The position numbers and the translations under genes are program-made. 64,000 nucleotides of DNA from a virus (lineage: Duplodnaviria > Caudoviricetes), in IMG/VR virus record IMGVR_UViG_3300000101_000005. One strand, 5' to 3'. The notes under the pieces are model-generated. The model had not been told where the DNA came from. It searched no databases and was given only the letters and a program-made list of their open reading frames with translations. Shown here piece after piece: positions 1 to 34,704 of the stretch. Position 1 is the stretch's first letter, and each line of letters starts with the position of its first letter.

Positions 1-68
1 TAGCATTCTTGTTCATATGTGCATGGATATGGGGTTCGATCTTAGTGATGATTAATTAATCATTTTGG

Positions 69-97
69 TTGACATCCAGTCATTTTGGATGTATAAT
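69..97 (+). promoter_or_regulatory. sigma70-type early promoter
   Basis: TTGACA(69-74)-17 bp-TATAAT(92-97); GGAGCG RBS before ATG 129. Confidence 0.9.
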
Positions 98-128
98 ATA
101 AGTTATATTACACAATAAAGGAGCGAAT

Positions 129-332
129 ATGTATAGTATGTTTTCAAAAGAAGGTAATGAGTTAGTAGGTCGTATCGTAGATGCAGCCAACAAGCTCAAA
201 TTGCATGATGGTGCCGAGCAGGCATTTGTGTGGGCAGACCACAACTTGACCAAGCTGAGCTATGGTGAAGGCATGGGTGAAGCAACTGATACCGCAGTGA
301 GAGAAGCTGTGTATGAGGCGGTGTGCTCATGA
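129..332 (+). CDS. hypothetical early protein, 67 aa
   Basis: ORF behind consensus promoter and RBS. Confidence 0.75.
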   Translation: MYSMFSKEGNELVGRIVDAANKLKLHDGAEQAFVWADHNLTKLSYGEGMGEATDTAVREAVYEAVCS

Positions 333-589
333 AGAATATTCAAGCATATGTGGACCAGTATAACAGCTGGCAGGCCATCTTTAATGGCAACAAGGTCCTA
401 GACCTAGCATCTAGCGCAGACCGTCACAAGATAGCAGATCGTATCGATTCAGATCTTAGTCCAGAGAATCTACACTGTGATGGTGAGATCAGCCATGCAG
501 AAGCAGAACGCAAGTACAAGCATCTGATGCGATGTGTGCGAGAGCTTCAGAAACTAGATCCTACAGTTAAGTTCTACGAGGCATATTAG
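329..589 (+). CDS. hypothetical phage protein (LSPENLHCDGE motif)
   Basis: ATG 329 overlaps upstream TGA (ATGA coupling). Confidence 0.75.
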   Translation: MKNIQAYVDQYNSWQAIFNGNKVLDLASSADRHKIADRIDSDLSPENLHCDGEISHAEAERKYKHLMRCVRELQKLDPTVKFYEAY

Positions 590-592
590 GGG

Positions 593-621
593 TTGACTTT
601 TATCCAAAATGACCCTATAAT
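593..621 (+). promoter_or_regulatory. sigma70-type early promoter
   Basis: TTGACT-17 bp-TATAAT; AAGGAGCG RBS before ATG 652. Confidence 0.9.
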
Positions 622-651
622 ATATAGTATATTAACAATAAGGAGCGCGAT

Positions 652-1056
652 ATGAATACAGTAACACAAACCCAAACAGTCCTAGCACAGGATCCCAACA
701 ACCTAACAGTGGAAGATATCCAGGATATCGTTGCTGAAGCACGTACAGCAGGAGCAAGTGCGGCAGCCAAGTTCCTAGCAGAATGGAACGAAGGCACAGG
801 CGGCAATGAGTACGGTGAGCCAATGTACTGTGGTTTTGCTTGGATCAACATATATGGTATTAAAGGCAATACCAAGTTGGGCAAAAGGTTTAAGGCAGCA
901 GGTGTAGAACGTAGCTATGATGGTAGCCTACAGATATACAACCCAAGTGGGCATAGAGGCCAGAGCATGGACGTTAAAGAAGCGGGCGCAGAAGCAGCCG
1001 CTAACGTGTTCACCAAGTATGGTTTCAAGTGTTATGCAGGGTCAAGAGCTGACTAA
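652..1056 (+). CDS. hypothetical phage protein (CGFAW motif), 134 aa
   Basis: ORF with promoter and RBS. Confidence 0.8.
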   Translation: MNTVTQTQTVLAQDPNNLTVEDIQDIVAEARTAGASAAAKFLAEWNEGTGGNEYGEPMYCGFAWINIYGIKGNTKLGKRFKAAGVERSYDGSLQIYNPSGHRGQSMDVKEAGAEAAANVFTKYGFKCYAGSRAD

Positions 1057-1076
1057 TAAAGCATTAGAATTAGGGG

Positions 1077-1105
1077 TTGACAACAGCCCCTTTTTCTCGT
1101 ATAGT
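1077..1105 (+). promoter_or_regulatory. sigma70-type early promoter
   Basis: TTGACA-17 bp-TATAGT; GGAGCG RBS before ATG 1136. Confidence 0.85.
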
Positions 1106-1135
1106 ATACTTAACAATTAACAAATGGAGCGAACA

Positions 1136-1339
1136 ATGAAAACAATAGTAAATGGAACAGCAGGCTTATTAATCATACTGGGCATAATGGCTATGGCCGG
1201 TAGTGCTAATGACTGTGATGGAGCATGTATGGAGACAGCTAACACACTGGGCGAGATGTTAATAGTGGCCAGCATTGGATTGGCAATGACACTGTTTGGT
1301 GGTATGATCTTGTTAGTAAACGGTAATGAGAATGCATAA
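1136..1339 (+). CDS. small membrane protein with two hydrophobic segments
   Basis: Start reassigned to ATG 1136, after GGAGCG; hydrophobic N- and C-terminal helices. Confidence 0.7.
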   Translation: MKTIVNGTAGLLIILGIMAMAGSANDCDGACMETANTLGEMLIVASIGLAMTLFGGMILLVNGNENA

Positions 1340-1526
1340 GCTATTAGTAGTCCTAGTCAGTGCTATGTGCTTGGGTGCATGTAGCACCATGGATGCACCC
1401 TACGACCCTAACATATATAAGGGCGAGACACTGTTTGAACAGATCCCCAACAACACAGATGAGTCACACTGTGCTGGACACTTGCCACAAGCAGAGCGCA
1501 AGAGCTGGCAGACAGGACGTTGCTAG
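1326..1526 (+). CDS. putative small lipoprotein
   Basis: Signal peptide with LGA-C lipobox. Confidence 0.6.
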   Translation: MRMHKLLVVLVSAMCLGACSTMDAPYDPNIYKGETLFEQIPNNTDESHCAGHLPQAERKSWQTGRC

Positions 1527-1727
1527 ATGTACAGAGTCTACTACACAGCAGACACAGTAGAGCAGTACGAAGGCTTCTACGAAACACAAGAAGAAGCTGA
1601 GGAGGTAGCACTGCATGCCTCAGAAGAATACGATGCGGAACGTGTTGAGGTTCGCGATCGTTTTGATAATATTATTTTTGTCATCGATGATGAGGCGGTG
1701 GTCATAGAAGAGGCGACCGGTATATAG
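1527..1727 (+). CDS. small acidic hypothetical protein
   Basis: Starts immediately after upstream TAG; Glu-rich. Confidence 0.6.
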   Translation: MYRVYYTADTVEQYEGFYETQEEAEEVALHASEEYDAERVEVRDRFDNIIFVIDDEAVVIEEATGI

Positions 1728-1906
1728 CTGTGTGTAGCGTAGCTGTTTTTTAAAGGCTAGTGGTCTAGAATCACCACCCAGAAATGATAAGTACTTCACC
1801 ACAATTTTTCGCGCTGCAAATTTTTTGACCTGTAGACCCATTTCGGGCTATCCAACAACACACAGTCACTCTAACCAACAATTGGCACACACTGCATTCT
1901 ACTCTG

Positions 1907-1912
1907 TAAATA
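1907..1912 (+). promoter_or_regulatory. late-type promoter TAAATA, 5 nt before ATG
   Basis: TAAATA-CAGTA-ATG(1918). Confidence 0.6.
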
Positions 1913-1917
1913 CAGTA

Positions 1918-2145
1918 ATGCACACAGTAACACTACAGTTTAAGGATGACTCAAAGTCATATCAGTATAAAGATGCTATAACGCACACAGCCAGCATACA
2001 CTTACTGCTAAAGGGCATACACACCAGTCAACCCACAGCTAATACGCTTACACTACACGATGACGCACAACTAGTACAAACACTGCTGTTACTCAGCAAC
2101 TCACCGTTGTATGACGCTGTATGCGCTTCTAAGACACCTAAATAG
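1918..2145 (+). CDS. hypothetical protein, 75 aa
   Basis: Start reassigned to ATG 1918 by the TAAATA-N5-ATG pattern. Confidence 0.6.
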   Translation: MHTVTLQFKDDSKSYQYKDAITHTASIHLLLKGIHTSQPTANTLTLHDDAQLVQTLLLLSNSPLYDAVCASKTPK

Positions 2146-2306
2146 TACGCTATAATCGTTTGTATGCTAAATAATACTGTAACAAATGAATATGGATCAC
2201 ATGTAATCAAAATAAGTGCATTGTGCTTCGAAGAGTAAGCTATATAGAAACTAGTGCATGATAGAACATTCAGCTTGTTACACTTTATAAGCGTAGGAGA
2301 TACAAT

Positions 2307-2561
2307 ATGCCCGTAAACGTACATACACATGTATTAGCAATGGCTCGCAACAAGACTACAGGACAAACTGTCAAAGAACAGGATCTTACTGGACATAGGT
2401 TTTTAAACAACCTTAAAGGAAAAGATTGGTGTCAACAGGTAGCTGATAAACTAGCAGCACGTATGGACAATCGTGAACCAGGTGGTTGGGAAAGCATAGT
2501 ACATCCTTACACGCCAGGCGTAAACGTACTGATCAACACACGCACATTCAAAACAAAATAA
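2307..2561 (+). CDS. hypothetical protein, 84 aa
   Basis: AGGAGA RBS upstream. Confidence 0.75.
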   Translation: MPVNVHTHVLAMARNKTTGQTVKEQDLTGHRFLNNLKGKDWCQQVADKLAARMDNREPGGWESIVHPYTPGVNVLINTRTFKTK

Positions 2562-2618
2562 ATTCACACAGGCAGTACACTAGGTGAAACTCTAGTGAAC
2601 AGTCAAGAGGTCAGTGAT

Positions 2619-2716
2619 ATCGCTACCGTTTTGCTGCGCTATCGCTACGCTGCTTCGCAGCTTCTTTAAAAATCGCTAACTGCTTCGCAGCTTTTTGAGC
2701 TTACCGCTTCGCGGCT
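2619..2716. repeat. imperfect tandem repeat with three GC-TTC-GC hairpins
   Basis: ATCGCTA at 2619, 2641, 2672; GCTGC-TTC-GCAGC 2649-2661, CTGC-TTC-GCAG 2680-2690, CCGC-TTC-GCGG 2704-2714. Confidence 0.8.
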
Positions 2717-3000
2717 ATGCGTTTGATGAGTAGAGGAAGATACACGCTCACAGCAACGAATCCCCAGAACACAGCCAGCACTGTCGCATAGAACTTCCAA
2801 TTGGTGTAGTCCAGTGCAATGCCAATGGAGACACCGCCAATCCAACAGTAGTCCAGTGTTGCGTGTATGCGTTTCCAGCGATCGCCCAGTGTGTCTATAA
2901 GATGTTGTCTTTTACGTGCAAACCAAGGGTGTACATGTCGCATTATAACGAACCCTTCGTTGAGTACCATAATTGTAAAGCCTATCCAAAATATTATCAT
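2701..3000 (-). CDS. membrane protein
   Basis: Start ATG 3000 (MIIFW) overlaps upstream TGA; hydrophobic helices. Confidence 0.7.
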   Translation of the reverse strand: MIIFWIGFTIMVLNEGFVIMRHVHPWFARKRQHLIDTLGDRWKRIHATLDYCWIGGVSIGIALDYTNWKFYATVLAVFWGFVAVSVYLPLLIKRIAAKR

Positions 3001-3350
3001 TGTATCACCTGCTGTGCAATAACCATCATGCTCAGCCATATCCATAGTGTATTGAATCCAACCAACGTGGGCAGCAGCTTCTTGTTACTGGCCCATATTA
3101 ACGTTAGGCTTGTAAAAAGTGCTACGAAATAGAACTGCCAAATTTGAATGCCAAATATCAGACCTGGTATGATTATGATGGCCTTGGCTACCCAACTTGC
3201 TGCTTCGATTATATTATAGCTTGTCCAGTATTCTCGAGTGAACCACATAGCATAACAGTCGCGTATGTTCTTCCACCCTACCACTGTGTATATCACGGTT
3301 GTTAGTACAATCCATGCTATAATGGCAAAATAAACTTGTTCGTTTGTCAT
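2997..3350 (-). CDS. multi-pass membrane protein
   Basis: Start ATG 3350 (MTNEQ), preceded by TAAATA-GTAGT; about four hydrophobic helices. Confidence 0.75.
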   Translation of the reverse strand: MTNEQVYFAIIAWIVLTTVIYTVVGWKNIRDCYAMWFTREYWTSYNIIEAASWVAKAIIIIPGLIFGIQIWQFYFVALFTSLTLIWASNKKLLPTLVGFNTLWIWLSMMVIAQQVIQ

Positions 3351-3355
3351 ACTAC

Positions 3356-3361
3356 TATTTA
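3356..3361 (-). promoter_or_regulatory. late-type promoter TAAATA-N5-ATG
   Basis: TAAATA-GTAGT-ATG(3350). Confidence 0.65.
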
Positions 3362-3370
3362 AAATAACAG

Positions 3371-3399
3371 TTGACAACTATAAGCAAATGTGGTATAAT
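3371..3399 (+). promoter_or_regulatory. sigma70-type promoter for the tRNA
   Basis: TTGACA-17 bp-TATAAT with extended -10 TG. Confidence 0.9.
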
Positions 3400-3412
3400 T
3401 ATAGTTATACAG

Positions 3413-3489
3413 GCGGCTATAGCTCAGTTGGATAGAGCGTAGGTTTGCGGAACCTAAGGTCAGGAGTTCGAATCTCTTTAGCCGCGCCA
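3413..3489 (+). tRNA. tRNA-Arg, anticodon GCG, encoded CCA
   Basis: Acceptor GCGGCTA/TAGCCGC; D arm GCTC/GAGC; anticodon arm TAGGT-TTGCGGA-ACCTA (GCG 3447-3449); T arm AGGAG-TTCGAAT-CTCTT; ends GCCA. Confidence 0.95.
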
Positions 3490-3518
3490 TTATTGTATAC
3501 TATAGAGGGGAACCGAAT

Positions 3519-3653
3519 ATGAAAACGTTTAGAAAGTCTCTTAGATTAGCACGTAGCACACAAGCACGTAAAAGAAGAAAACTCACCAAAGATATTGTAG
3601 AAACTGTCACTCAACGCCGATGGGGGCGATTGCGTAAACTACGCAAGGATTAG
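3519..3653 (+). CDS. 44-aa Arg/Lys-rich basic peptide
   Basis: GAGGGG RBS; MKTFRKSLRLARSTQARKRRKLTKDIVETVTQRRWGRLRKLRKD; absent from ORF track. Confidence 0.6.
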   Translation: MKTFRKSLRLARSTQARKRRKLTKDIVETVTQRRWGRLRKLRKD

Positions 3654-3672
3654 TTCTATAAGCCTAATGTAA

Positions 3673-3861
3673 TTAACAATTATTATACATGATAGGGTTT
3701 TGTTTTTCATCTAGTACAAGGTCTCTTGTGTCTTTGTACTGCGCTACCATGACACCTCTACCGCCATTAGATCCTACAAACATGCAGGGTATAACTTGTC
3801 GGTCATTGTGTGTCTTGATATGATGTTTAGTAACAATCCCACGCTTTTTTATTCCAGCCAT
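3673..3861 (-). CDS. hypothetical protein, 62 aa
   Basis: GGA-containing RBS, compact ORF. Confidence 0.65.
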   Translation of the reverse strand: MAGIKKRGIVTKHHIKTHNDRQVIPCMFVGSNGGRGVMVAQYKDTRDLVLDEKQNPIMYNNC

Positions 3862-3885
3862 AAATTCCTTTGACTGTAGTTATGC

Positions 3886-4335
3886 CTAGGCTTTCAATTG
3901 ATAGGCATAATTAACTGAATCGTCATTGATGCGCCATTTAGTAGCACCATTGCGTAGATGAAAACGTTCAGCCATCTCAGTAACAGGACTGAGTGTAACT
4001 AGATTTTTAATTTCAGGTTTGTTGCTTGTGATCCAATCAGAAGCATCAAGTATTAGCTGTCTACCACTACCTTTGCTGTAACTCCATATAGTATAGAATA
4101 TAGCAGTGTCAGCATTCTTATCAGTACTACGATCAGTCATGTCGCTTACACTGTTTGGTATTCCTTTAGTGTAACGTACACAACATATGCTGCCCAAGTA
4201 TTCTTTATCATCATACAGGCCAAACATTTCAGCAGTTTTATTGATACGGTAATCAGCGGTTAAATGTGGTCTAACCGGATCGTCTTTAATAATTTGTGAT
4301 ACCCACTCGTCGCAGGTATTGATAACCTTAAGCAT
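3886..4335 (-). CDS. minimal malonyl-CoA decarboxylase-like (GNAT-fold) protein
   Basis: TAIFYTI, LVTLSP, RFHLRNGA and VNYAY motifs occur in the same order as in the MCD catalytic domain. Confidence 0.7.
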   Translation of the reverse strand: MLKVINTCDEWVSQIIKDDPVRPHLTADYRINKTAEMFGLYDDKEYLGSICCVRYTKGIPNSVSDMTDRSTDKNADTAIFYTIWSYSKGSGRQLILDASDWITSNKPEIKNLVTLSPVTEMAERFHLRNGATKWRINDDSVNYAYQLKA

Positions 4336-4386
4336 CGCGCTCTGTTCCTTGTTCTGTTAATACTATTTAATTATTTTAGTATAGGA

Positions 4387-5094
4387 TTATACTAGTTCTG
4401 GTGCTTGTTCTAGGCTAAGTTGTTCATCCTCTAGTTCACGTATTTCTGTACTAAGTTGATCAATCATTCCTAGGTTACGCAGTTGTTTGAACACAATGTT
4501 TTCTACACTATATTCACCTGCTCTTTCAAGTCCTGCTTTGCGCATTTTGGTTAGCTTTTGTTTTGCTAATCTCATCTTGGGCAAATCTTTTGATATCAAA
4601 GATGCTTCTATATCGTGCTGTATGCTATCTTTCTTTGCTTGTACAGCAGCATCATTGATGTTTGGTTTTACTTTCTTAGGTTCAATTAGCCATGTATTTT
4701 TGCTTAGGCTATACACACCAGTTGAATGATGTGGTTCTTTTGCACCCTGTATATAACACTCTACAGGTAAGTTCTTAATACGTATGTTATGTTCTTCTGC
4801 CCACAATGCTTTCTTTGCATTATATAGTTCTCTTTGTTCGTCACTGGGCATGCCGCGAACAATGATATGTAAATCTAAATCACTATACTCTGTCCATGTA
4901 AAATTTGCATTTGAACCTGTTAGTGTATAGTCTACTACATCTAGTTCTACACCTATAAACTCTTGAAACACTTTTGCAATCTCAATTAGTTTTTCTGTTA
5001 TCTCGGATTTAAGTTCGCCACCGTTCCACAACACTGGATTTAACTTCTTGTTAACAGTCATGGATTCTTCGTTGAGTAGTTCTACAATGCGCAT
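4387..5094 (-). CDS. Pol-beta superfamily nucleotidyltransferase
   Basis: TGSNAN...SDLDLHII motif. Confidence 0.75.
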   Translation of the reverse strand: MRIVELLNEESMTVNKKLNPVLWNGGELKSEITEKLIEIAKVFQEFIGVELDVVDYTLTGSNANFTWTEYSDLDLHIIVRGMPSDEQRELYNAKKALWAEEHNIRIKNLPVECYIQGAKEPHHSTGVYSLSKNTWLIEPKKVKPNINDAAVQAKKDSIQHDIEASLISKDLPKMRLAKQKLTKMRKAGLERAGEYSVENIVFKQLRNLGMIDQLSTEIRELEDEQLSLEQAPELV

Positions 5095-5098
5095 ATTA

Positions 5099-5353
5099 CT
5101 ATTTAGCCCACATTAGGTGATATGTAACAAGCACCTTAGGGTCGTAAAAATCTGCAACAAGACGCTTAACACCATTGCCTTTTACTTCTAACATCAGTTG
5201 AACGTCTTCGGGTTTTTGTTCTAGTAACCAAGTGCAATGGTCTTTACCGATTGCATTTTGTACTCTAGGCCAATCAATATCGTATTGTGCGTCTACAGTT
5301 TGATCTGCAGGAACTGACCATTCAAATATATCTACTTTAGTATTCTTCATCAC
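5099..5353 (-). CDS. hypothetical protein
   Basis: ORF overlapping the helicase stop. Confidence 0.65.
   Translation of the reverse strand: MMKNTKVDIFEWSVPADQTVDAQYDIDWPRVQNAIGKDHCTWLLEQKPEDVQLMLEVKGNGVKRLVADFYDPKVLVTYHLMWAK
5100..5105 (-). promoter_or_regulatory. late-type promoter TAAATA-N5-ATG
   Basis: TAAATA-GTAAT-ATG(5094). Confidence 0.7.
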
Positions 5354-6773
5354 TACCCATGTTCGATAAAATTTCTCTCAGCTTGGTTGATTCTACCTTG
5401 CCTCTAATCTTACCGACCGATGCGCCTTCTGTTGGATCATCAGTGGGTGTGTTGTTTTCGCCTGTGCTTGTTGCTGTTTTTCTTTTAATTGAATCTAGTA
5501 TACTTGAATTGCCTGAACGTTCTCCGTTTGTAGACTCTTGTTCATCTTCATCTATGTCTACAATACGTAGCGTGTCAATGTCAAAGCCTAAATCTACTTT
5601 TTGTCCTACACCACTACTTGAACGTGTTTTCATTAATTGTATTTGATATCTGCCTCTTTCACGCATTGCTCTACTTGTAAAAATACCAAACACATTATCT
5701 GCTGTTTGAATCTTACTAAGTCCACCACTAATGTGTGAATGATCAAACTCTACTTCTTCTACTGCACCTCTATTCAACTGTGCCGCTGTAACAAATACAG
5801 TTTGCAATTCCATTGCTAAGTTACGCAGTTCTTCAGATACATACTTGTCTTTAACAAACAAATTCTCTGCACTAATCTTTTTACCTATTGGCATAAGCAA
5901 GTCTAAGTAGTCTACTAACAATACATCTACTTTCTTACCTGCCTTAATCTCATATTCTTTTAGATACGCTCTAATATCATTAGCAGTCTTTCCACTAGGC
6001 ATATATTTAATCTGCATCATGCCTGCTTTCTTGCCAATCATTTTAACTTTCATTTCTACATCATCAAGATCTTTAAAAATGTTTCTTGTACTAATACCTG
6101 TTACCATACTATCTACACGCATACTAACAAGTGCTTCACTAAGCTCTAGTGTTAAGTAAACAACGTTAAGACCTTCTAATGCAAAGTTAACACCTAAGTT
6201 TGCTAAGAACAAACTCTTACCTGCACCTGATCCACCTGCAAATATATTCAACTCGCCTCTGTTGAACCCGCCAAATAGTTTTCTATCTAAACTATCCCAA
6301 CCAGTTGAAACCTGTCCGTTCTTATCTTTAAGTCCCATAAGTCTTGCTTTAGGATCTAAAAAGTAATCTGTACCCATATCACGTGCTAGACCAATTTGTA
6401 CTGCTTCTTTTACAAGTCCTTCAACTTCGCCATATTCATTTTGTTCTAGCAAGTCAGCACTTTTTAAAATTGCACGTTCTAAACTTTTGTGTCTTGTAAA
6501 ACTTTCGAACTCGTCCATTAGCCAATTTGTGTGTCCTTCTTTGACATCACCTGGATGTTTTAACTCTGTTCTGCAACTTGCATTAACCATATCATAGTCA
6601 GGCAACACGTTATACTCTTTAGTATACATGTTCATAAACTCGGCTGCTTCTTGCAACTTTCTATCAAACAAAGTACTGTCAAAGATACCTTGACACCTAA
6701 CAAATGTTTCTGCATCTGCCAGCATCATTTCCAGATAAACTTTCTGTACTTCGTAATCGTAATTTTTTGCCAT
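5337..6773 (-). CDS. gp41: replicative DnaB/gp41-like helicase
   Basis: Walker A GGSGAGKS, LLVDYLDL, AAQLNRG, QLMKTRSS. Confidence 0.93.
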   Translation of the reverse strand: MAKNYDYEVQKVYLEMMLADAETFVRCQGIFDSTLFDRKLQEAAEFMNMYTKEYNVLPDYDMVNASCRTELKHPGDVKEGHTNWLMDEFESFTRHKSLERAILKSADLLEQNEYGEVEGLVKEAVQIGLARDMGTDYFLDPKARLMGLKDKNGQVSTGWDSLDRKLFGGFNRGELNIFAGGSGAGKSLFLANLGVNFALEGLNVVYLTLELSEALVSMRVDSMVTGISTRNIFKDLDDVEMKVKMIGKKAGMMQIKYMPSGKTANDIRAYLKEYEIKAGKKVDVLLVDYLDLLMPIGKKISAENLFVKDKYVSEELRNLAMELQTVFVTAAQLNRGAVEEVEFDHSHISGGLSKIQTADNVFGIFTSRAMRERGRYQIQLMKTRSSSGVGQKVDLGFDIDTLRIVDIDEDEQESTNGERSGNSSILDSIKRKTATSTGENNTPTDDPTEGASVGKIRGKVESTKLREILSNMGSDEEY

Positions 6774-6922
6774 TACTTTATTAACTCTATTATAATATAA
6801 ATTTGTAAGCCCAAAACAATAATCGGAACAATAGTTCTAATCAATTCCATTGTATGATTATATTCATCTAGCTTTCTCTCAAACTTGTTTCTTTTTCTCT
6901 TAGTCATTTTATCTTCTCTCAT
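6773..6922 (-). CDS. 49-aa peptide with basic N-terminus and C-terminal transmembrane segment
   Basis: MREDKMTKRKRNKFERKLDEYNHTMELIRTIVPIIVLGLQIYIIIELIK; TAA overlaps helicase ATG. Confidence 0.55.
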   Translation of the reverse strand: MREDKMTKRKRNKFERKLDEYNHTMELIRTIVPIIVLGLQIYIIIELIK

Positions 6923-6936
6923 ACGTAATTATGTTA

Positions 6937-8403
6937 CTAGTATACACTCACTCCATACTTTAGAGCAAACTCTTTTGCGTCCACTTTGTCGTTTACCATA
7001 GGTTTTCCTTTAATATTTAAACTTGTGTTTAATAACATAGGGCATCCTGTGGCGCTATACCACCGTCTTAGAAGCTCATACAAGCCCGTGTGTAGCTTCT
7101 TATTAACTACTTGAACTCTTGATGTACCATCTATATGCGCTATTGCAGGATACTTATTTGTATCTCTACACTTGGCGGTATACTGCATATAAGGCCCCAT
7201 TGGTCCGTCAAACAATTCCTGTGCATGTTCTTCAAGGACAACTGGTGCAAATGGTCTAAACTTCTGTCTGTGTTTAATATCATTGACCCTATCTTTTGTA
7301 TGCTCTCCTCTTGGATCAGCAAACAGACTACGATTGCCAAGAGCCCTAGGACCGTATTCAGCACGACCGTTAGCAACTCCACAGATACCGGAGGATAACA
7401 ATGCGTTAAGTGTATTCTCAACTGGATACTTTCCTTTTATATCATAGCCTAAGTAAGGTGATTTAAACTCTATGTGTTCGTTATAGTTTGAAAGAACAGC
7501 ACCTATTGCACTACCTGCGTCACTAGGATTAGGCATAATCCAAACATTATCAAACAATTCTTTTGCTTGGCCGTTTGCACTACAGTTTAATGCACAGCCT
7601 CCCATTAGCACTAAGTTTTTACTTTTACATGTATATTTGCAATACAACAGCATTTCAAGTAATGCTTGTTCATATATTAATTGTGTAGCGGCAGCAATGT
7701 CATACATGTCTTGTTCAGTAGTAAGATCAGGTCTCCAACTCTTACAACCTCTATGTAAATTTTGTTTTAGTCTAACAGTTAAGTTTTTATTATTATAATT
7801 AACGTCAATGAACTGATCCAATATGTCGTGATACAATCTTCCTTTATCTCCGTATGCAGCCATTCCCATTAAGATGTATTCATCTTCGTTAGGCTTAAGG
7901 CCAATACGTTGAGTCATTGCACTATACCAAAGTCCGATACTGTGTGGAAACTTTTGACTCCACACTTGGTACATGTCGTTGCCTTCTGCTTCCCAAATAG
8001 TTAGCGTTTCAAATTCTCCAATTGCATCAATGCATAAAACAGTAGCATTATCGTACCCACTGGTATAATAGCCAGCAGCAGCGTGACTCCTGTGATGACT
8101 AGTGTAATTGATAGGACAATCCACTCCATACCTGTCAAGATATTTTCGTATATTATTGTCTGCGAAATTCCATCCTTGGCCTGCATAAAGTTGTCGTAAA
8201 GATTTTTTAATTGGGTTTTCATACCAATGTACCTCGTTGGGCTCACCGTAATGGAGAGCATAGTTTATTAAATTTTTATCAAGATGGGGGTCATTTTTAA
8301 CGCCACTGAAACGCTCACTGTGACTTGCGAACAAAAGTTCTTTGTTCTTAAATACAGCAAGTGCTGCATCGTGACTGTTAGCTGAAATCCCCCAACTGAT
8401 CAT
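6937..8403 (-). CDS. carbamoyltransferase (NodU/CmcH family)
   Basis: HDAA, ERFSGVK, HHRSHAAAGYY, DAIGE, GGCALNCSANG, GPRALGNRS, RPFAP, LLNTSLN. Confidence 0.93.
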   Translation of the reverse strand: MISWGISANSHDAALAVFKNKELLFASHSERFSGVKNDPHLDKNLINYALHYGEPNEVHWYENPIKKSLRQLYAGQGWNFADNNIRKYLDRYGVDCPINYTSHHRSHAAAGYYTSGYDNATVLCIDAIGEFETLTIWEAEGNDMYQVWSQKFPHSIGLWYSAMTQRIGLKPNEDEYILMGMAAYGDKGRLYHDILDQFIDVNYNNKNLTVRLKQNLHRGCKSWRPDLTTEQDMYDIAAATQLIYEQALLEMLLYCKYTCKSKNLVLMGGCALNCSANGQAKELFDNVWIMPNPSDAGSAIGAVLSNYNEHIEFKSPYLGYDIKGKYPVENTLNALLSSGICGVANGRAEYGPRALGNRSLFADPRGEHTKDRVNDIKHRQKFRPFAPVVLEEHAQELFDGPMGPYMQYTAKCRDTNKYPAIAHIDGTSRVQVVNKKLHTGLYELLRRWYSATGCPMLLNTSLNIKGKPMVNDKVDAKEFALKYGVSVY

Positions 8404-8657
8404 GTGTTATATTTTTTCCATAATGAATGTAGTGCGTAAAACCACACTCCGTTTATACTAGGTTCAACAAGTGCAACTGCACCAGCTTCCCAAAGACTTG
8501 CGCCAGTCATTAGACTAACAACAGTCATTGCAATACCAACGTGTCCTAGCGTGTAAATTACTGCTAGTACAACACTGTTACCTTTTAGTAGGCTTTTGAT
8601 TACCTCAAATATGCCTACTTGTACTTCGTTTTTCATTTCAAGAATCCTTTCTACCAT
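8400..8657 (-). CDS. small membrane protein (DUF2061-like)
   Basis: YTLGH...ALVEP..NGVWFYALH pattern. Confidence 0.55.
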   Translation of the reverse strand: MVERILEMKNEVQVGIFEVIKSLLKGNSVVLAVIYTLGHVGIAMTVVSLMTGASLWEAGAVALVEPSINGVWFYALHSLWKKYNT

Positions 8658-8667
8658 AGCTGATATC

Positions 8668-8784
8668 TTACTTGTAGATAAACGGGTCTTTGTTATTCTT
8701 ATTCATTCGCTTGAGTTTCCAGGCATAATACTTTTCAACAAGCCAGTCCCATTTATGTATGAACCAATCTTTGATCCGTTTCAT
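8668..8784 (-). CDS. 38-aa peptide ending KDPFIYK
   Basis: ATG overlaps primase TAA; MKRIKDWFIHKWDWLVEKYYAWKLKRMNKNNKDPFIYK. Confidence 0.5.
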   Translation of the reverse strand: MKRIKDWFIHKWDWLVEKYYAWKLKRMNKNNKDPFIYK

Positions 8785-9791
8785 TACGCAGTCTCCAATT
8801 TATGTTCAAAGTTATTTTTAGCAACGTTCAACTTAATAGAACCTTGCACCGCGGTCTTCATTGCATCAACTAGTACAAACAATTTACCATAGCGTTTGAC
8901 TGCATCAGCAACATCTTTTACATCACTATCCCAGTTAGGAAATGCAACATGCCAATTATGCTCATCAGCTTTGTTAATAAGCTCAACACCTGCACTATCC
9001 TGATCTGGAATAACGATTACTTCTTGACCTAAACTATTAATAATCCTTGCTTGTTGCTCGTGAATATTATTAGTAAGCAATGCAACACCACCAATAGATA
9101 GTGCATCAAACGGTCCTTCAGTTACAAATATATATTTCTGATCTTCCTTTTGTTCGTCAATGTTATAGACAAAGTGAGGGTGATGATCGGAAATATATTT
9201 AGGTCTGCCATCTTTAACTTTCCTAGCAGTTGATCCTACAATACTTCCTTTGTACCAAAATGGGATAATGACTCTATCTCTATATCCTTCAAGCGGTGTC
9301 CAATAAAAGTGTTTGCTAACAGGATCACAATCTCTTTCTAGTAGATACTTAACTACTTCTGCTAGACTGGCTTCCTCTTCCTCGTTGAGATCAGCTTCTA
9401 ACCAATCACGTATCGCTAAAGCACCCTCTGGTAATGTCTTAGGCGTAAACGTTACTGTGCTAGAAACTTCTCTCGGAGTATACTCTGGTGATTCAGCTTT
9501 AAGTGCTTCAAATATCATTTGATTGATATCGTCATCGTTAGCACCTAGCCATCTGCATAAATTTTTAAACTTGTTTGATAAAGGTCTGCCTGGTTCCCAA
9601 CTTGCACTGTACTTACAGTTGAAGCAATTGAATACCACACCTAAATCAAATTTCAAACCACCACGCTTACGTTTGTCCTGAGAGTGACCTCTATGGGAAC
9701 AACACGGAGCATTAAAACTTGTCCAACCTGAAGGACTAGTTTTGGCACGTGAAGGCAAGAGTGTTCGGAATTTATCTAATACCAGAGTCAT
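8784..9791 (-). CDS. gp61: DNA primase (gp61/DnaG-like)
   Basis: N-terminal Zn-binding CC..H..CFNC; TOPRIM TEGPFD and PDQD..G. Confidence 0.88.
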   Translation of the reverse strand: MTLVLDKFRTLLPSRAKTSPSGWTSFNAPCCSHRGHSQDKRKRGGLKFDLGVVFNCFNCKYSASWEPGRPLSNKFKNLCRWLGANDDDINQMIFEALKAESPEYTPREVSSTVTFTPKTLPEGALAIRDWLEADLNEEEEASLAEVVKYLLERDCDPVSKHFYWTPLEGYRDRVIIPFWYKGSIVGSTARKVKDGRPKYISDHHPHFVYNIDEQKEDQKYIFVTEGPFDALSIGGVALLTNNIHEQQARIINSLGQEVIVIPDQDSAGVELINKADEHNWHVAFPNWDSDVKDVADAVKRYGKLFVLVDAMKTAVQGSIKLNVAKNNFEHKLETA

Positions 9792-9797
9792 AGTATT

Positions 9798-9825
9798 AGT
9801 ATAGCATCTTTGCGGGTAATGTCAA
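9798..9825 (-). promoter_or_regulatory. sigma70-type promoter, 6 nt before the primase ATG
   Basis: TTGACA-16 bp-TATACT-AATACT-ATG; extended -10 TG. Confidence 0.7.
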
Positions 9826-9826
9826 C

Positions 9827-10732
9827 CTATCTTACTAGAATTTTATCCAAAGATCCTGTGTTTTCTCGAGTTGGACAGTGCTTTACTCTAAACCAATTAT
9901 ACTTACCGGTTTGGTTTTTGAATATATTACCATCTGTGCTTGTGATGTCAAACGTCTGTAAAACAAACCAACTATCTGCACTTGGAGTACCACCGTCTGC
10001 TAAACTGCCTTGTATTTCTACTTTCCCTGTATAGTTTTTGAAATAAAACTGTAAGGTGTGTAAACTGCTTGGAGTTTGCATATTGGGTTTAAGGTCAACT
10101 ATACTACTGTAATGTAATTCATCAAACACATTATTAGAAGTATTAGTTTGGTTATAATTTGGTCTTGGGTTTTGGAACTGTTCTGTATCGTCTGCCATAT
10201 ATGCAAGACTATCCCAGTCAATGTCCTTATTAAACTTATAAACTTCTATAGTATTGTAAGGAGTTCCTAGCACGTCACCCATAATCTCTAAGTTGCCCAT
10301 TGCACCGTAGTGTGGATCAAAGTATAGCGGAGATCTTGAAGTAACTTTATAGTCGGTGGAGTCAACTGTTTGTCTTACTTCTTTAGTAATGCTATAGCTA
10401 TAAAATCCTGGCTCTAGTTCTGTTAGTTCGTCCGCTGTTAGTATAACATACACTCTACCAGTTGTTAAGTCGTCTACTGAGCAGTCTTTACTAAGAACTA
10501 AATCACTATTTTCTTTGTTTATAATATTAAACACAACTGTAGAACCAGTTATGTTGTATTTCTTTTCATCGCTGTTTCTTACCTGTAAGTCGATTCTATT
10601 ATCGACACTACGATAAGCCATCAGCCCTCGATTGTATACCATACGTTTTCTCTCCACTTTCCAAGTACCGTTAACGCCATTATCATAGACGTTGAGTAAA
10701 TTTGGATATAAATATATTGAATGACTTTGCAT
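9827..10732 (-). CDS. hypothetical, probably virion structural protein
   Basis: Start ATG 10732 by TAAATA-TGTAT-ATG; beta-rich sequence. Confidence 0.6.
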   Translation of the reverse strand: MQSHSIYLYPNLLNVYDNGVNGTWKVERKRMVYNRGLMAYRSVDNRIDLQVRNSDEKKYNITGSTVVFNIINKENSDLVLSKDCSVDDLTTGRVYVILTADELTELEPGFYSYSITKEVRQTVDSTDYKVTSRSPLYFDPHYGAMGNLEIMGDVLGTPYNTIEVYKFNKDIDWDSLAYMADDTEQFQNPRPNYNQTNTSNNVFDELHYSSIVDLKPNMQTPSSLHTLQFYFKNYTGKVEIQGSLADGGTPSADSWFVLQTFDITSTDGNIFKNQTGKYNWFRVKHCPTRENTGSLDKILVR

Positions 10733-10737
10733 ATACA

Positions 10738-10743
10738 TATTTA
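10738..10743 (-). promoter_or_regulatory. late-type promoter TAAATA-N5-ATG
   Basis: TAAATA-TGTAT-ATG(10732). Confidence 0.65.
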
Positions 10744-10766
10744 TCGAAATGAGAACAAACTAAAAA

Positions 10767-11141
10767 ATGAGAATAACAGATAATTTACAAGAGAACTTTC
10801 CGTTCATAAGCGTTCTAAAACACGCCGAAAAAGAGTACGTTGGTATAATCATCAACCAAGACAATAATGTTACATCATTCTACGACTACGAGAAGTTAAA
10901 AACTCAGAAAGATCAAGAAAAATTTATTGAACTGGGCGAAGCATGGTGGTGGGAAAGCAACAGACAAATTCCTATTAATATATTTTTATCTAGGGAAATT
11001 TACCCTTTTAAGTACGCTATTAGAAACTTTACCAGCAAGGACGTCCAGGTCATATTAGGTCCTGTCACTAGTCTAAACGCTATTATTACAAAGAGGATTA
11101 AGCGTAAGTCAATTACGCTCGTTAGAAAACCTTCTAGTTAA
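10767..11141 (+). CDS. hypothetical phage protein
   Basis: Isolated plus-strand ORF with phage-like codon usage. Confidence 0.7.
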   Translation: MRITDNLQENFPFISVLKHAEKEYVGIIINQDNNVTSFYDYEKLKTQKDQEKFIELGEAWWWESNRQIPINIFLSREIYPFKYAIRNFTSKDVQVILGPVTSLNAIITKRIKRKSITLVRKPSS

Positions 11142-11275
11142 ATAATCGGAAGCATCGCCACGTACATCGTGATGAATGTTCCTACCATAAGTATTAATTC
11201 TGCGACTCTGTCGCACGTATCGCCAGTACAACGAGCTCTCAACTCATTGATAAATCTTACCACCTTATTCTCCAT
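11138..11275 (-). CDS. 45-aa peptide with CxGxxC and C-terminal transmembrane segment
   Basis: MENKVVRFINELRARCTGDTCDRVAELILMVGTFITMYVAMLPII; TAAATA at 11324-11329 upstream. Confidence 0.5.
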   Translation of the reverse strand: MENKVVRFINELRARCTGDTCDRVAELILMVGTFITMYVAMLPII

Positions 11276-11354
11276 TTTATGAAATTATTGTAGAGTAGAA
11301 GACATTTTCTACCCCATACGAGCTATTTATATAAAGATATAAAAAACACTTATT

Positions 11355-11891
11355 TTATGAATAATTGAACCAACCGGTTGCAATCCACTTCTCAGATGTC
11401 TGAGAAACTATGCCTTTGTGTGTATGAGTAAAGTCACTTGGCCATATAACTGACAAGCCTTTCTTTGCCTCAATCTCAAAGTCTTGATACTTCCATGCTG
11501 TACCTCCATCTGGTACATCATTAAGATATGTCATGTAAACTAACTGACGTGCTTCGTCACCTCTATCTCTTTCGAAGTGCCAAACTTTAAATCCGCCTCC
11601 TACTGGATAGTGCTGTAATAAATTATGATCCTCTGTCTTAAGATACAAATGTTGTAAATTATACTTTTCAATATATTGATCATAACCCATTTGCAATTGT
11701 TGAAAGTATCGTTGTATTCTTGGATCAGTACTGCTATTGTAAAAAATTACATCTGTAGATTCTTTAATATTATGATCTACAATACCTCCTGCAACTCCTG
11801 CAGATTTGTATTCATCTTTCTCGGCATGATATGCAACTAGGTCATCACATACTTGTTCGCCTACTTGAAATGTGTGAATAAAATTTTCCAT
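11355..11891 (-). CDS. 2OG-Fe(II) oxygenase
   Basis: WHFE, YMTYLNDVPDGG.T, WPSDFTHTHKG, KWIATGW. Confidence 0.85.
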   Translation of the reverse strand: MENFIHTFQVGEQVCDDLVAYHAEKDEYKSAGVAGGIVDHNIKESTDVIFYNSSTDPRIQRYFQQLQMGYDQYIEKYNLQHLYLKTEDHNLLQHYPVGGGFKVWHFERDRGDEARQLVYMTYLNDVPDGGTAWKYQDFEIEAKKGLSVIWPSDFTHTHKGIVSQTSEKWIATGWFNYS

Positions 11892-12232
11892 TAATGATTC
11901 CTTTTCCCATCAAACACACAAACAAAATATAAACCGTAATCGCCTGTGTTGTGTACTCTATGAAATACACCATCTTCAATTAGTATAACATCACCTTCTT
12001 GTACAGTAATAGTATCGTCATCTAATTGCATTTTACCTTTACCTTTAATAAAGAAGTAAACTTCTTCCTGTCCTTCGTGTTTATGTCCGCTTGTGCTTTT
12101 GTTTGCTTCTAGAAACGTACTACTTAAGATTAAGTTCTTTAGTGTCGTATTATCTTTTACAATATAACGATCGTCCTGTTTTGCAATTACACCACCGATA
12201 TCATCTATACTTACTCTCATTACCATCTCCAA
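11891..12232 (-). CDS. cupin domain protein
   Basis: GHKHEGQEEVY and GDVILIEDGVFHRVHN. Confidence 0.85.
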   Translation of the reverse strand: MEMVMRVSIDDIGGVIAKQDDRYIVKDNTTLKNLILSSTFLEANKSTSGHKHEGQEEVYFFIKGKGKMQLDDDTITVQEGDVILIEDGVFHRVHNTGDYGLYFVCVFDGKRNH

Positions 12233-12567
12233 GGTAGCATTGACAAGCCAATCATATTAAGTAAGAACTCACAAACTATAATTGTAATAGTTCCGCCAAC
12301 TATTTGCCATGTCCACCATTTCCAACCTTTTAGACCGTCTCCCCATTTTCTTATTTTACTGTTTCTTGCTTTGTCATAGGCTCCACTTTTTTCACCTAAT
12401 TTATTTGACCAATGATTTGGGTCTAGCCATTCTTTTAATTTAATCAAAGGCCAAAAGATTTTTTTCATTATACTCATTGCTTTAGTGTCTTGTAATACTA
12501 CGTTAAGATACAATGCACCTCCTAATACAATTATTGTTATTGCTATAATTATAAAATCTTCACTCAT
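12220..12567 (-). CDS. membrane protein
   Basis: N- and C-terminal hydrophobic helices. Confidence 0.65.
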   Translation of the reverse strand: MSEDFIIIAITIIVLGGALYLNVVLQDTKAMSIMKKIFWPLIKLKEWLDPNHWSNKLGEKSGAYDKARNSKIRKWGDGLKGWKWWTWQIVGGTITIIVCEFLLNMIGLSMLPWRW

Positions 12568-34632: not shown

Positions 34633-34704
34633 TTACTTGTTCATTACGTACATTGTAACTTCAAAACCAAAACGCATTTCTGTGTATGAAGGTTTAGTCC
34701 ACAT
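34633..34704 (-). CDS. pqqA: pyrroloquinoline quinone precursor peptide PqqA
   Basis: MWTKPSYTEMRFGFEVTMYVMNK (23 aa) with ExxxY core; AAAGGAGA RBS 6 nt upstream. Confidence 0.92.
   Translation of the reverse strand: MWTKPSYTEMRFGFEVTMYVMNK

Follow-up and report, generated by a model that had tools for sequence, protein, structure and literature searches.

Phage tRNA genes are usually explained by codon supply and, more recently, by evasion of defences that cleave host tRNAs. In T4, T5, the cyanomyophages, the pelagimyophages and the Methylophilales phage Melnitz, stand-alone tRNA genes of bacterial type apparently serve codons used by the phage (PMC9004378, PMC7029224), and the anticodons reported for arginine in this set are TCT or ACG. 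The text on Melnitz gives two tRNA-Arg(TCT) genes, Table S2 of the same work names one Melnitz.trna3-ArgACG, and the count of 'gcg' in the Melnitz tRNA table is zero (PMC9004378). The gene considered here lies in a 64,000-nucleotide stretch of DNA, hereafter the window, from the IMG/VR virus record IMGVR_UViG_3300000101_000005. It is likewise a stand-alone tRNA of bacterial type that apparently serves codons used by its phage, but its anticodon is GCG. No paper on a class of phage tRNA-Arg(GCG) was found in the literature.

For the anticodon itself, a cellular parallel exists in the TadA-less Mollicutes (Mycoplasma Pneumoniae group), in which G34 replaces A34/I34 for the reading of CGU and CGC and TadA is absent. 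In the parts of the study by Yokobori et al. (2013; PMC3711424) on which we draw, outgroup bacteria combine ACG with tadA and GCG is found only in tadA-less Mollicutes, where it is a cellular gene that follows the loss of tadA and is accompanied by tRNA-Arg(UCG). Here, by contrast, it is a phage gene, UCG is seldom alongside, and the codon usage of the phage points to a host that edits. The native GCG genes of Patescibacteria, Spirochaetota and Chloroflexota resemble the phage copies in the type of their D-arm and in the anticodon loop UUGCGGA, but they often stand in Ser/Arg tRNA clusters, whereas the phage copies lie behind a promoter of their own or within phage tRNA arrays, and the identity between the two groups does not exceed 0.89. 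Among cultured phages, the Streptomyces phage Wakanda/Muntaha (NC_070785) carries a tRNA-Arg(GCG), annotated there as 'tRNA-Arg', of 74 nt and with about 85% identity to one IMG/VR variant over a stretch of 59 nt; since its host is GC-rich with CGC as the main arginine codon, this tRNA is likely used for Watson-Crick reading of CGC and not for CGU wobble. Among 50,697 phage records, none matched any of three queried tRNA variants over the full length with about 85% identity or more. Phage tRNAs that bypass defences, as described for a retron (PMC11555353) and for PARIS AriB (PMC12409363) and as put forward in the anticodon-loop hypothesis (PMC10264068), offer a further likeness in that the loop is unlike the usual host type; for the phage studied here, both an arginine-directed nuclease and resistance to it are hypothetical.

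The source of the window is a large, uncultured, aquatic, T4-like phage. Its genes include a T4-type large terminase, a tail sheath protein of 1141 aa, UvsX, a DnaB-type helicase, a primase and baseplate and fibre proteins, and the nearest cultured relatives by terminase (TerL) and tail sheath are the jumbo myoviruses PA5oct (TerL 52% identical), Phosso, Atu_ph07 and the GAP32 group, whose hosts are Proteobacteria. A megablast search of 50,697 phage records returned no close DNA match for positions 1-12000. Sister IMG/VR contigs of 92 and 114 kb are estimated by CheckV to be 25-32% complete, which gives a genome of roughly 350 kb. The tRNA-Arg(GCG) is the sole tRNA detected by ARAGORN in the 64-kb window, as it is in the 92-kb and 114-kb relatives. 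Elsewhere in the window (34633-34704, - strand) lies a PqqA-like peptide of 23 codons (…FEVTMY…), and an 86%-identical copy occupies positions 12215-12307 of an unrelated IMG/VR contig (L009) whose tRNA array also contains a tRNA-Arg(GCG); the two copies hint at a PQQ-using host group common to both phages.

The tRNA gene (3413-3489, + strand) is 77 nt long with an encoded CCA and is recovered by both ARAGORN and Rfam, with 69.8 bits (E = 3.6e-13) against RF00005, whose gathering score is 29. Its acceptor stem, GCGGCTA/TAGCCGC, is paired at all 7 bp; its D-arm, GCTC-AGTTGGATA-GAGC, is of the bacterial tRNA-Arg type and includes A20; and its anticodon arm, TAGGT-TTGCGGA-ACCTA, places U33 before the anticodon G34 C35 G36 (3447-3449), followed by G37 (3450) and A38. 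A discriminator G precedes the CCA. The cloverleaf, GCG anticodon, G37 and encoded CCA described in the earlier note were thereby confirmed by the two programs as well as by reading of the sequence. By the rules established in E. coli, the identity elements for ArgRS are A20, C35 and G or U at position 36. All of these are present in the window tRNA (A20 in the D-loop AGTTGGATA, C35 and G36 at 3448-3449), and A20, C35 and G36 are invariant across the phage family described below, so that recognition and charging by the host ArgRS would be expected. From G36-G37, methylation to m1G37 by TrmD is likely on established knowledge. The A34 required of the TadA-dependent tRNA-Arg (ACG to ICG) is absent, and because the gene has G34 instead, its product is no TadA substrate and needs no deamination by TadA. 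The G37 had also raised the idea of descent from a CCG-type tRNA-Arg, which was dropped as the few CCG tRNAs in the loci have A37.

Upstream of the tRNA, a promoter scan identified a -35 hexamer TTGACA at 3371-3376 (+) and an extended -10 element, TGgTATAAT, at 3391-3399 (+; TG 3391-3392, TATAAT 3394-3399). This promoter matches the sigma-70 consensus at 12/12 positions with a 17-nt spacer and the additional TG, bearing out the consensus promoter recognised earlier, and it ends 13 nt upstream of the tRNA. Sites of 12/12 quality occur twice in the window, at 69 and 3371 and both on the + strand, against 0.1 expected from shuffles. The first 3.4 kb, with its small + strand ORFs, also hold a cluster of sites close to the consensus. 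The second 12/12 promoter (69-98, +) and two 11/12 sites (593 and 1077, +) precede such small + strand ORFs, and GC around the promoters at 69-1077 is 42.5% compared with about 36% elsewhere. The region of small + strand ORFs at the start of the window is probably an early gene block. The cluster of promoters together with these ORFs places the tRNA in an apparent early region read by host RNA polymerase. Standard sigma-70 spacing would put the transcription start near 3406-3407, leaving a leader of 6-7 nt for RNase P, and the early type of the consensus promoter suggests early expression of the tRNA. The position of the promoter is kept in sister contigs and in more distant relatives, and where the tRNA is not part of an array, nearly all relatives have TTGAC-N17-TATAAT/TATAGT ahead of it.

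Thirty nucleotides downstream of the tRNA begins a 44-codon Arg/Lys-rich ORF (3519-3653, +) with a ribosome-binding site, GAGGGG, at 3505-3510. Its 44 aa include 11 Arg and 8 Lys, and CGN codons make up 7 of the 11 Arg codons compared with 34% genome-wide. The arrangement recalls Melnitz, in which tRNA-Arg(TCT) is followed by rpsU, encoding S21, a small basic translation protein; for the window ORF, however, no Pfam or PHROG family match and no detectable relation to S21 were found. It is conserved in six sister contigs and replaced by a different ORF in more distant relatives. Because no terminator lies between the two, the ORF is probably co-transcribed with the tRNA and would thus belong to the same unit. 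On the other side, the start region of a divergent gene without assigned function (117 aa, 2997-3350, -) abuts the tRNA promoter. Two further genes of the neighbourhood gave matches: the similarity of a 149-aa protein (3886-4335, -) to malonyl-CoA decarboxylase (PF05292, E = 5.7e-7) is confined to the catalytic portion, and a Pol-beta-type nucleotidyltransferase of 235 aa (4387-5094, -; PF01909, phrog_36119) is encoded about 900 nt from the tRNA.

The gene belongs to a large family in uncultured phages. When IMG/VR was scanned with the anticodon arm of the window as query and the anticodon left as NNN, 22 contigs were recovered and 22/22 had GCG; the acceptor stems of these contigs exist in five versions, each fully complementary. 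A broader scan with an Arg-type D-arm plus U-GCG-N-A, whose contig counts are lower bounds, yielded at least 122 IMG/VR loci (L001-L122), all with an ARAGORN tRNA-Arg(GCG) and together comprising 63 distinct sequences. The anticodon loop is UUGCGGA in 114 of the 122 phage loci listed, and the median locus GC is 37%. The family ranges over uncultured, low-GC phages that are probably mostly aquatic. The anticodon had been called rare in the earlier note, which holds for most bacteria but not for uncultured phages, given the at least 122 IMG/VR contigs and, in addition, the cultured Wakanda.

In an alignment of 60 distinct sequences of the family, pairing is kept in 99.8% of stem cells, and both partners have changed in 16 of 21 pairs, a level reached in 0/500 shuffles and approached by no slid register. 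The compensatory changes fall in three of the four stems, the D-stem being nearly invariant. These phage tRNA-Arg(GCG) genes are, on this comparative evidence, working tRNAs under selection. There is accordingly a practically negligible chance that the gene is an artefact or a dead gene, be it an anticodon error, a tRNA fragment or an attachment-site remnant; such readings are refuted by the conservation data, namely a full-length, high-scoring cloverleaf, a GCG that is invariant across independent metagenomes, compensatory changes in the stems and a conserved promoter of the gene's own. A base-call error, which had been named as grounds for abandoning the original claim, is excluded by sister contigs from independent metagenomes that all have GCG and by the outcome of the NNN scan. 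An attachment site also fits poorly with a lytic phage of T4-like type in which no integrase was seen.

In six sister contigs, with 86-96% nucleotide identity over 3-14 kb, the tRNA occupies the same site together with its promoter and the small basic ORF, and about eleven relatives that are 70-78% identical in the adjacent DnaB region keep the promoter-tRNA(GCG) unit with other acceptor stems. At the same time, an identical copy of the tRNA (77/77) occurs in L011, and copies matching at 75-76 of 77 positions occur in L001, L004 and L017 within tRNA arrays, although these four loci have nothing else in common with the window. Near-identical tRNAs in unrelated loci, taken with freely drifting acceptor stems, indicate gene transfer between unrelated phages. 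The overall pattern points to vertical inheritance within the clade of the window phage combined with exchange between unrelated phages. The less usual finding is this large and mobile family of G34 tRNA-Arg in phages; the single gene, taken by itself, is an ordinary phage tRNA.

Some of the arrays contain other genes of interest. In L076 (IMGVR_UViG_3300020442_002599, about 11480-12240), a six-tRNA array that ends in tRNA-Arg(GCG) is found with a tRNA ligase that has about 70% DNA identity to that of Prochlorococcus phage P-SSM2; tRNA repair and tRNA supply may coexist here. A tRNA-Ser with anticodon ACT was called by ARAGORN in L001 (1526-1615) and L017 (4584-4673), in arrays that also hold tRNA-Arg(GCG). 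ACT is another A34 anticodon that is unusual in bacteria.

A parallel scan found ACG-type tRNA-Arg in at least 116 IMG/VR contigs; with at least 122 contigs for GCG, both types of tRNA-Arg are common in phages. The ACG-type loop is CUACGAA in 82 of 109 copies, and UUGCGGA differs from it at 3 of 7 positions. Among the matches listed, the GCG-selected loci contain one ACG tRNA and the ACG-selected loci contain no GCG tRNA. The two thus behave as alternatives in phage loci and are rarely found together. tRNA-Arg(UCG) accompanies GCG in 2 of the 122 listed loci.

In cellular genomes, a scan recovered a native tRNA-Arg(GCG) in at least 120 bacterial species. Most of the species listed belong to Patescibacteria, Spirochaetota and Chloroflexota, and others to Planctomycetota, Thermotogae, Nitrospinota, SAR324 and Myxococcota; some of these taxa are marine. 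The loop is UUGCGGA in 99 of the 120 cellular copies listed, and in the loci examined the genes are often placed within Ser/Arg tRNA clusters. In one small-genome phylum, the GCG pattern is present in 198 of 401 sampled genomes, a tally in which one genome, G169, is unpublished and supports no individual claim. When ten genomes with GCG were searched for TadA, no hit exceeded the cut-off of NCBIfam NF008113 (150 bits), a soft test given that only 6 of 14 controls exceed it; weak hits to TadA paralogues occur below the cut-off, and one of the ten genomes has an ACG-type match. Within these limits, the background given earlier, that GCG is typical of bacterial lineages without TadA, agrees with the data, as it does with PMC3711424. 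One MAG, L246 (CAYHFQ010000004.1), is labelled 'uncultured Gammaproteobacteria', yet the genomes sampled from its phylum are all of 0.4-2.1 Mb, as in Patescibacteria, and with such small genomes throughout the sample the public label is probably wrong. In G347, from the same sample, the anticodon stem is that of the window tRNA; since this tRNA differs elsewhere and adjoins a tRNA-Ser, it is a native cellular gene.

The wide cellular occurrence raises the question of whether the phage simply mirrors its host, that is, whether the host comes from a lineage without TadA in which tRNA-Arg(GCG) is the native reader of CGY and the phage copy boosts an existing supply, as one branch of the earlier note proposed. 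The native use of the same UUGCGGA loop in so many species, some of them marine, the GCG pattern in about half of the small-genome phylum sampled and, as a soft test, the ten genomes without TadA above the cut-off would all accord with such a host. The tRNA sequences themselves argue otherwise. Among the species listed, the best cellular match to the window tRNA covers 59 of 73 positions, and for the phage variants the best cellular matches have a median identity of 0.82 and reach 0.89 at most; an identity above 90% to a cellular tRNA-Arg(GCG), expected of a host copy, was not seen among the at least 120 species. The codon usage of the phages is a further objection. Where CGA is read only by the weak I:A wobble, specific avoidance of this codon is expected. 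The window has a CGA/CGT ratio of 0.20, compared with 0.33 for 105 other low-GC viral loci with GCG and 0.32 for viral loci with ACG. In most other four-fold boxes of the window and of the GCG viral loci, codons ending in A are at least as frequent as those ending in T. In low-GC bacteria that use GCG, a small control of 19 loci and 25.7k codons, the ratio is 0.73, like that of their other boxes. The GCG phages therefore avoid CGA as the ACG phages do and unlike the GCG-using bacteria, with the caveat that the avoidance could in part be an adaptation to the phage's own tRNA. The nearest cultured relatives moreover infect Proteobacteria, the phage carries pqqA, and another type of GCG contig resembles the myophages of Pelagibacter and OM43, whose hosts use ACG. 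A published tRNA table gives ACG, TCG and TCT for OM43 and Methylopumilus and ACG and TCT for Fonsibacter, with GCG in none of them; as OM43 thus has a tRNA-Arg(UCG), the argument from CGA is not a clean fit for this candidate host. Wakanda too has GCG, and its host genus, Streptomyces, is represented in the table of PMC3711424 by S. avermitilis, which combines ACG with tadA. On these comparisons of sequence and codon use, a TadA-less host is unlikely, and the host of the GCG phages probably edits; the branch of the earlier note in which the host lacks TadA is accordingly disfavoured by the avoidance of CGA, the proteobacterial relatives, pqqA and the ACG of OM43- and SAR11-type hosts.

A different possibility is that the tRNA serves chiefly to replace host tRNA-Arg(ICG) destroyed by an anticodon nuclease or another tRNA-depleting system, with a loop that would resist attack through U32, G34 and G37. 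Colicin D acts on tRNA-Arg. For the principle there is precedent (PMC11555353; PMC12409363; and PMC10264068, where colicin D is among the tRNA-depleting enzymes considered), and several features of the locus would suit it: the loop departs from the ACG-type CUACGAA at the 3 of 7 positions noted above, the promoter is strong and of early type, and the presence of this tRNA alone in 64-114 kb of the lineage suggests a specific and not a general need. Yet UUGCGGA is the normal loop of bacteria that use GCG and need not be an adaptation for escape, no arginine-specific anticodon nuclease is known or was detected for the candidate hosts, and no connection between the tRNA and a gene for defence or repair is seen in the window. 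We regard replacement of a destroyed host tRNA as the chief role to be doubtful; it is compatible with the decoding role preferred below and does not exclude it, but finds no support in the window sequence, which likewise offers nothing against escape from a defence aimed at tRNA-Arg(ICG).

The explanation that we consider probable, if not secure, is that the gene provides an early-expressed, editing-independent supplement for the decoding of CGU and CGC and is one member of the large G34 family of phage tRNA-Arg. Straight after infection, the host sigma-70 RNA polymerase would transcribe the tRNA from its consensus early promoter, RNase P would remove the leader of about 6 nt, and the host ArgRS would charge the product, which would then decode CGC by Watson-Crick pairing and CGU by G:U wobble. 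With G34 and not A34, the capacity of the phage to decode these codons would be independent of the supply of the host editing enzyme, and we infer that this independence is the selected advantage of G34. Demand for the tRNA is in part visible in the window, where AGA accounts for 59% of Arg codons, CGT for 24% and CGC for 4% (CGT and CGC together 28%). CGT is indeed frequent, as claimed earlier, being the second most used Arg codon, but the main codon is AGA, which counts against a reading based on tRNA demand. In the early + strand ORFs, 20 of 37 Arg codons are CGY, a higher share than the 188 of 667 found elsewhere (p = 0.0014); the figure assumes that these small ORFs are real genes. The earlier suggestion of an editing-independent tRNA that serves CGT by G:U wobble can therefore be retained in part: the G34 and the share of CGT are seen, and the decoding role built on them is plausible.

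Why G34 should be preferred over A34 may have several possible reasons, among them limited or declining TadA, better reading of CGC, or resistance to an attack on tRNA-Arg(ICG). The at least 116 IMG/VR contigs with an ACG-type tRNA-Arg indicate that avoidance of editing is no general need of phages. As a more speculative extension, which we put forward tentatively and hold to be possible rather than probable, G34 may be a widespread and mobile alternative to A34, sometimes transferred with its promoter, that keeps CGY decoding in TadA-containing hosts immune to limits on tRNA-Arg(ICG) or attack on it; TadA could become saturated, editing could be lost as the host is shut off, or an arginine-directed anticodon nuclease could be at work.

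When phage genomes are annotated, a GCG anticodon should not be taken as evidence for an archaeal or a TadA-less host. Most bacteria have tRNA-Arg(ICG) as their sole inosine tRNA, and it is made by an essential enzyme. A G34 version with no need of TadA is present in many uncultured phages, rarely alongside the A34 version, and if the tentative extension to TadA-containing hosts is true, the essential pair of TadA and tRNA-Arg(ICG) would mark a front between phages and bacteria that had so far gone unrecognised.
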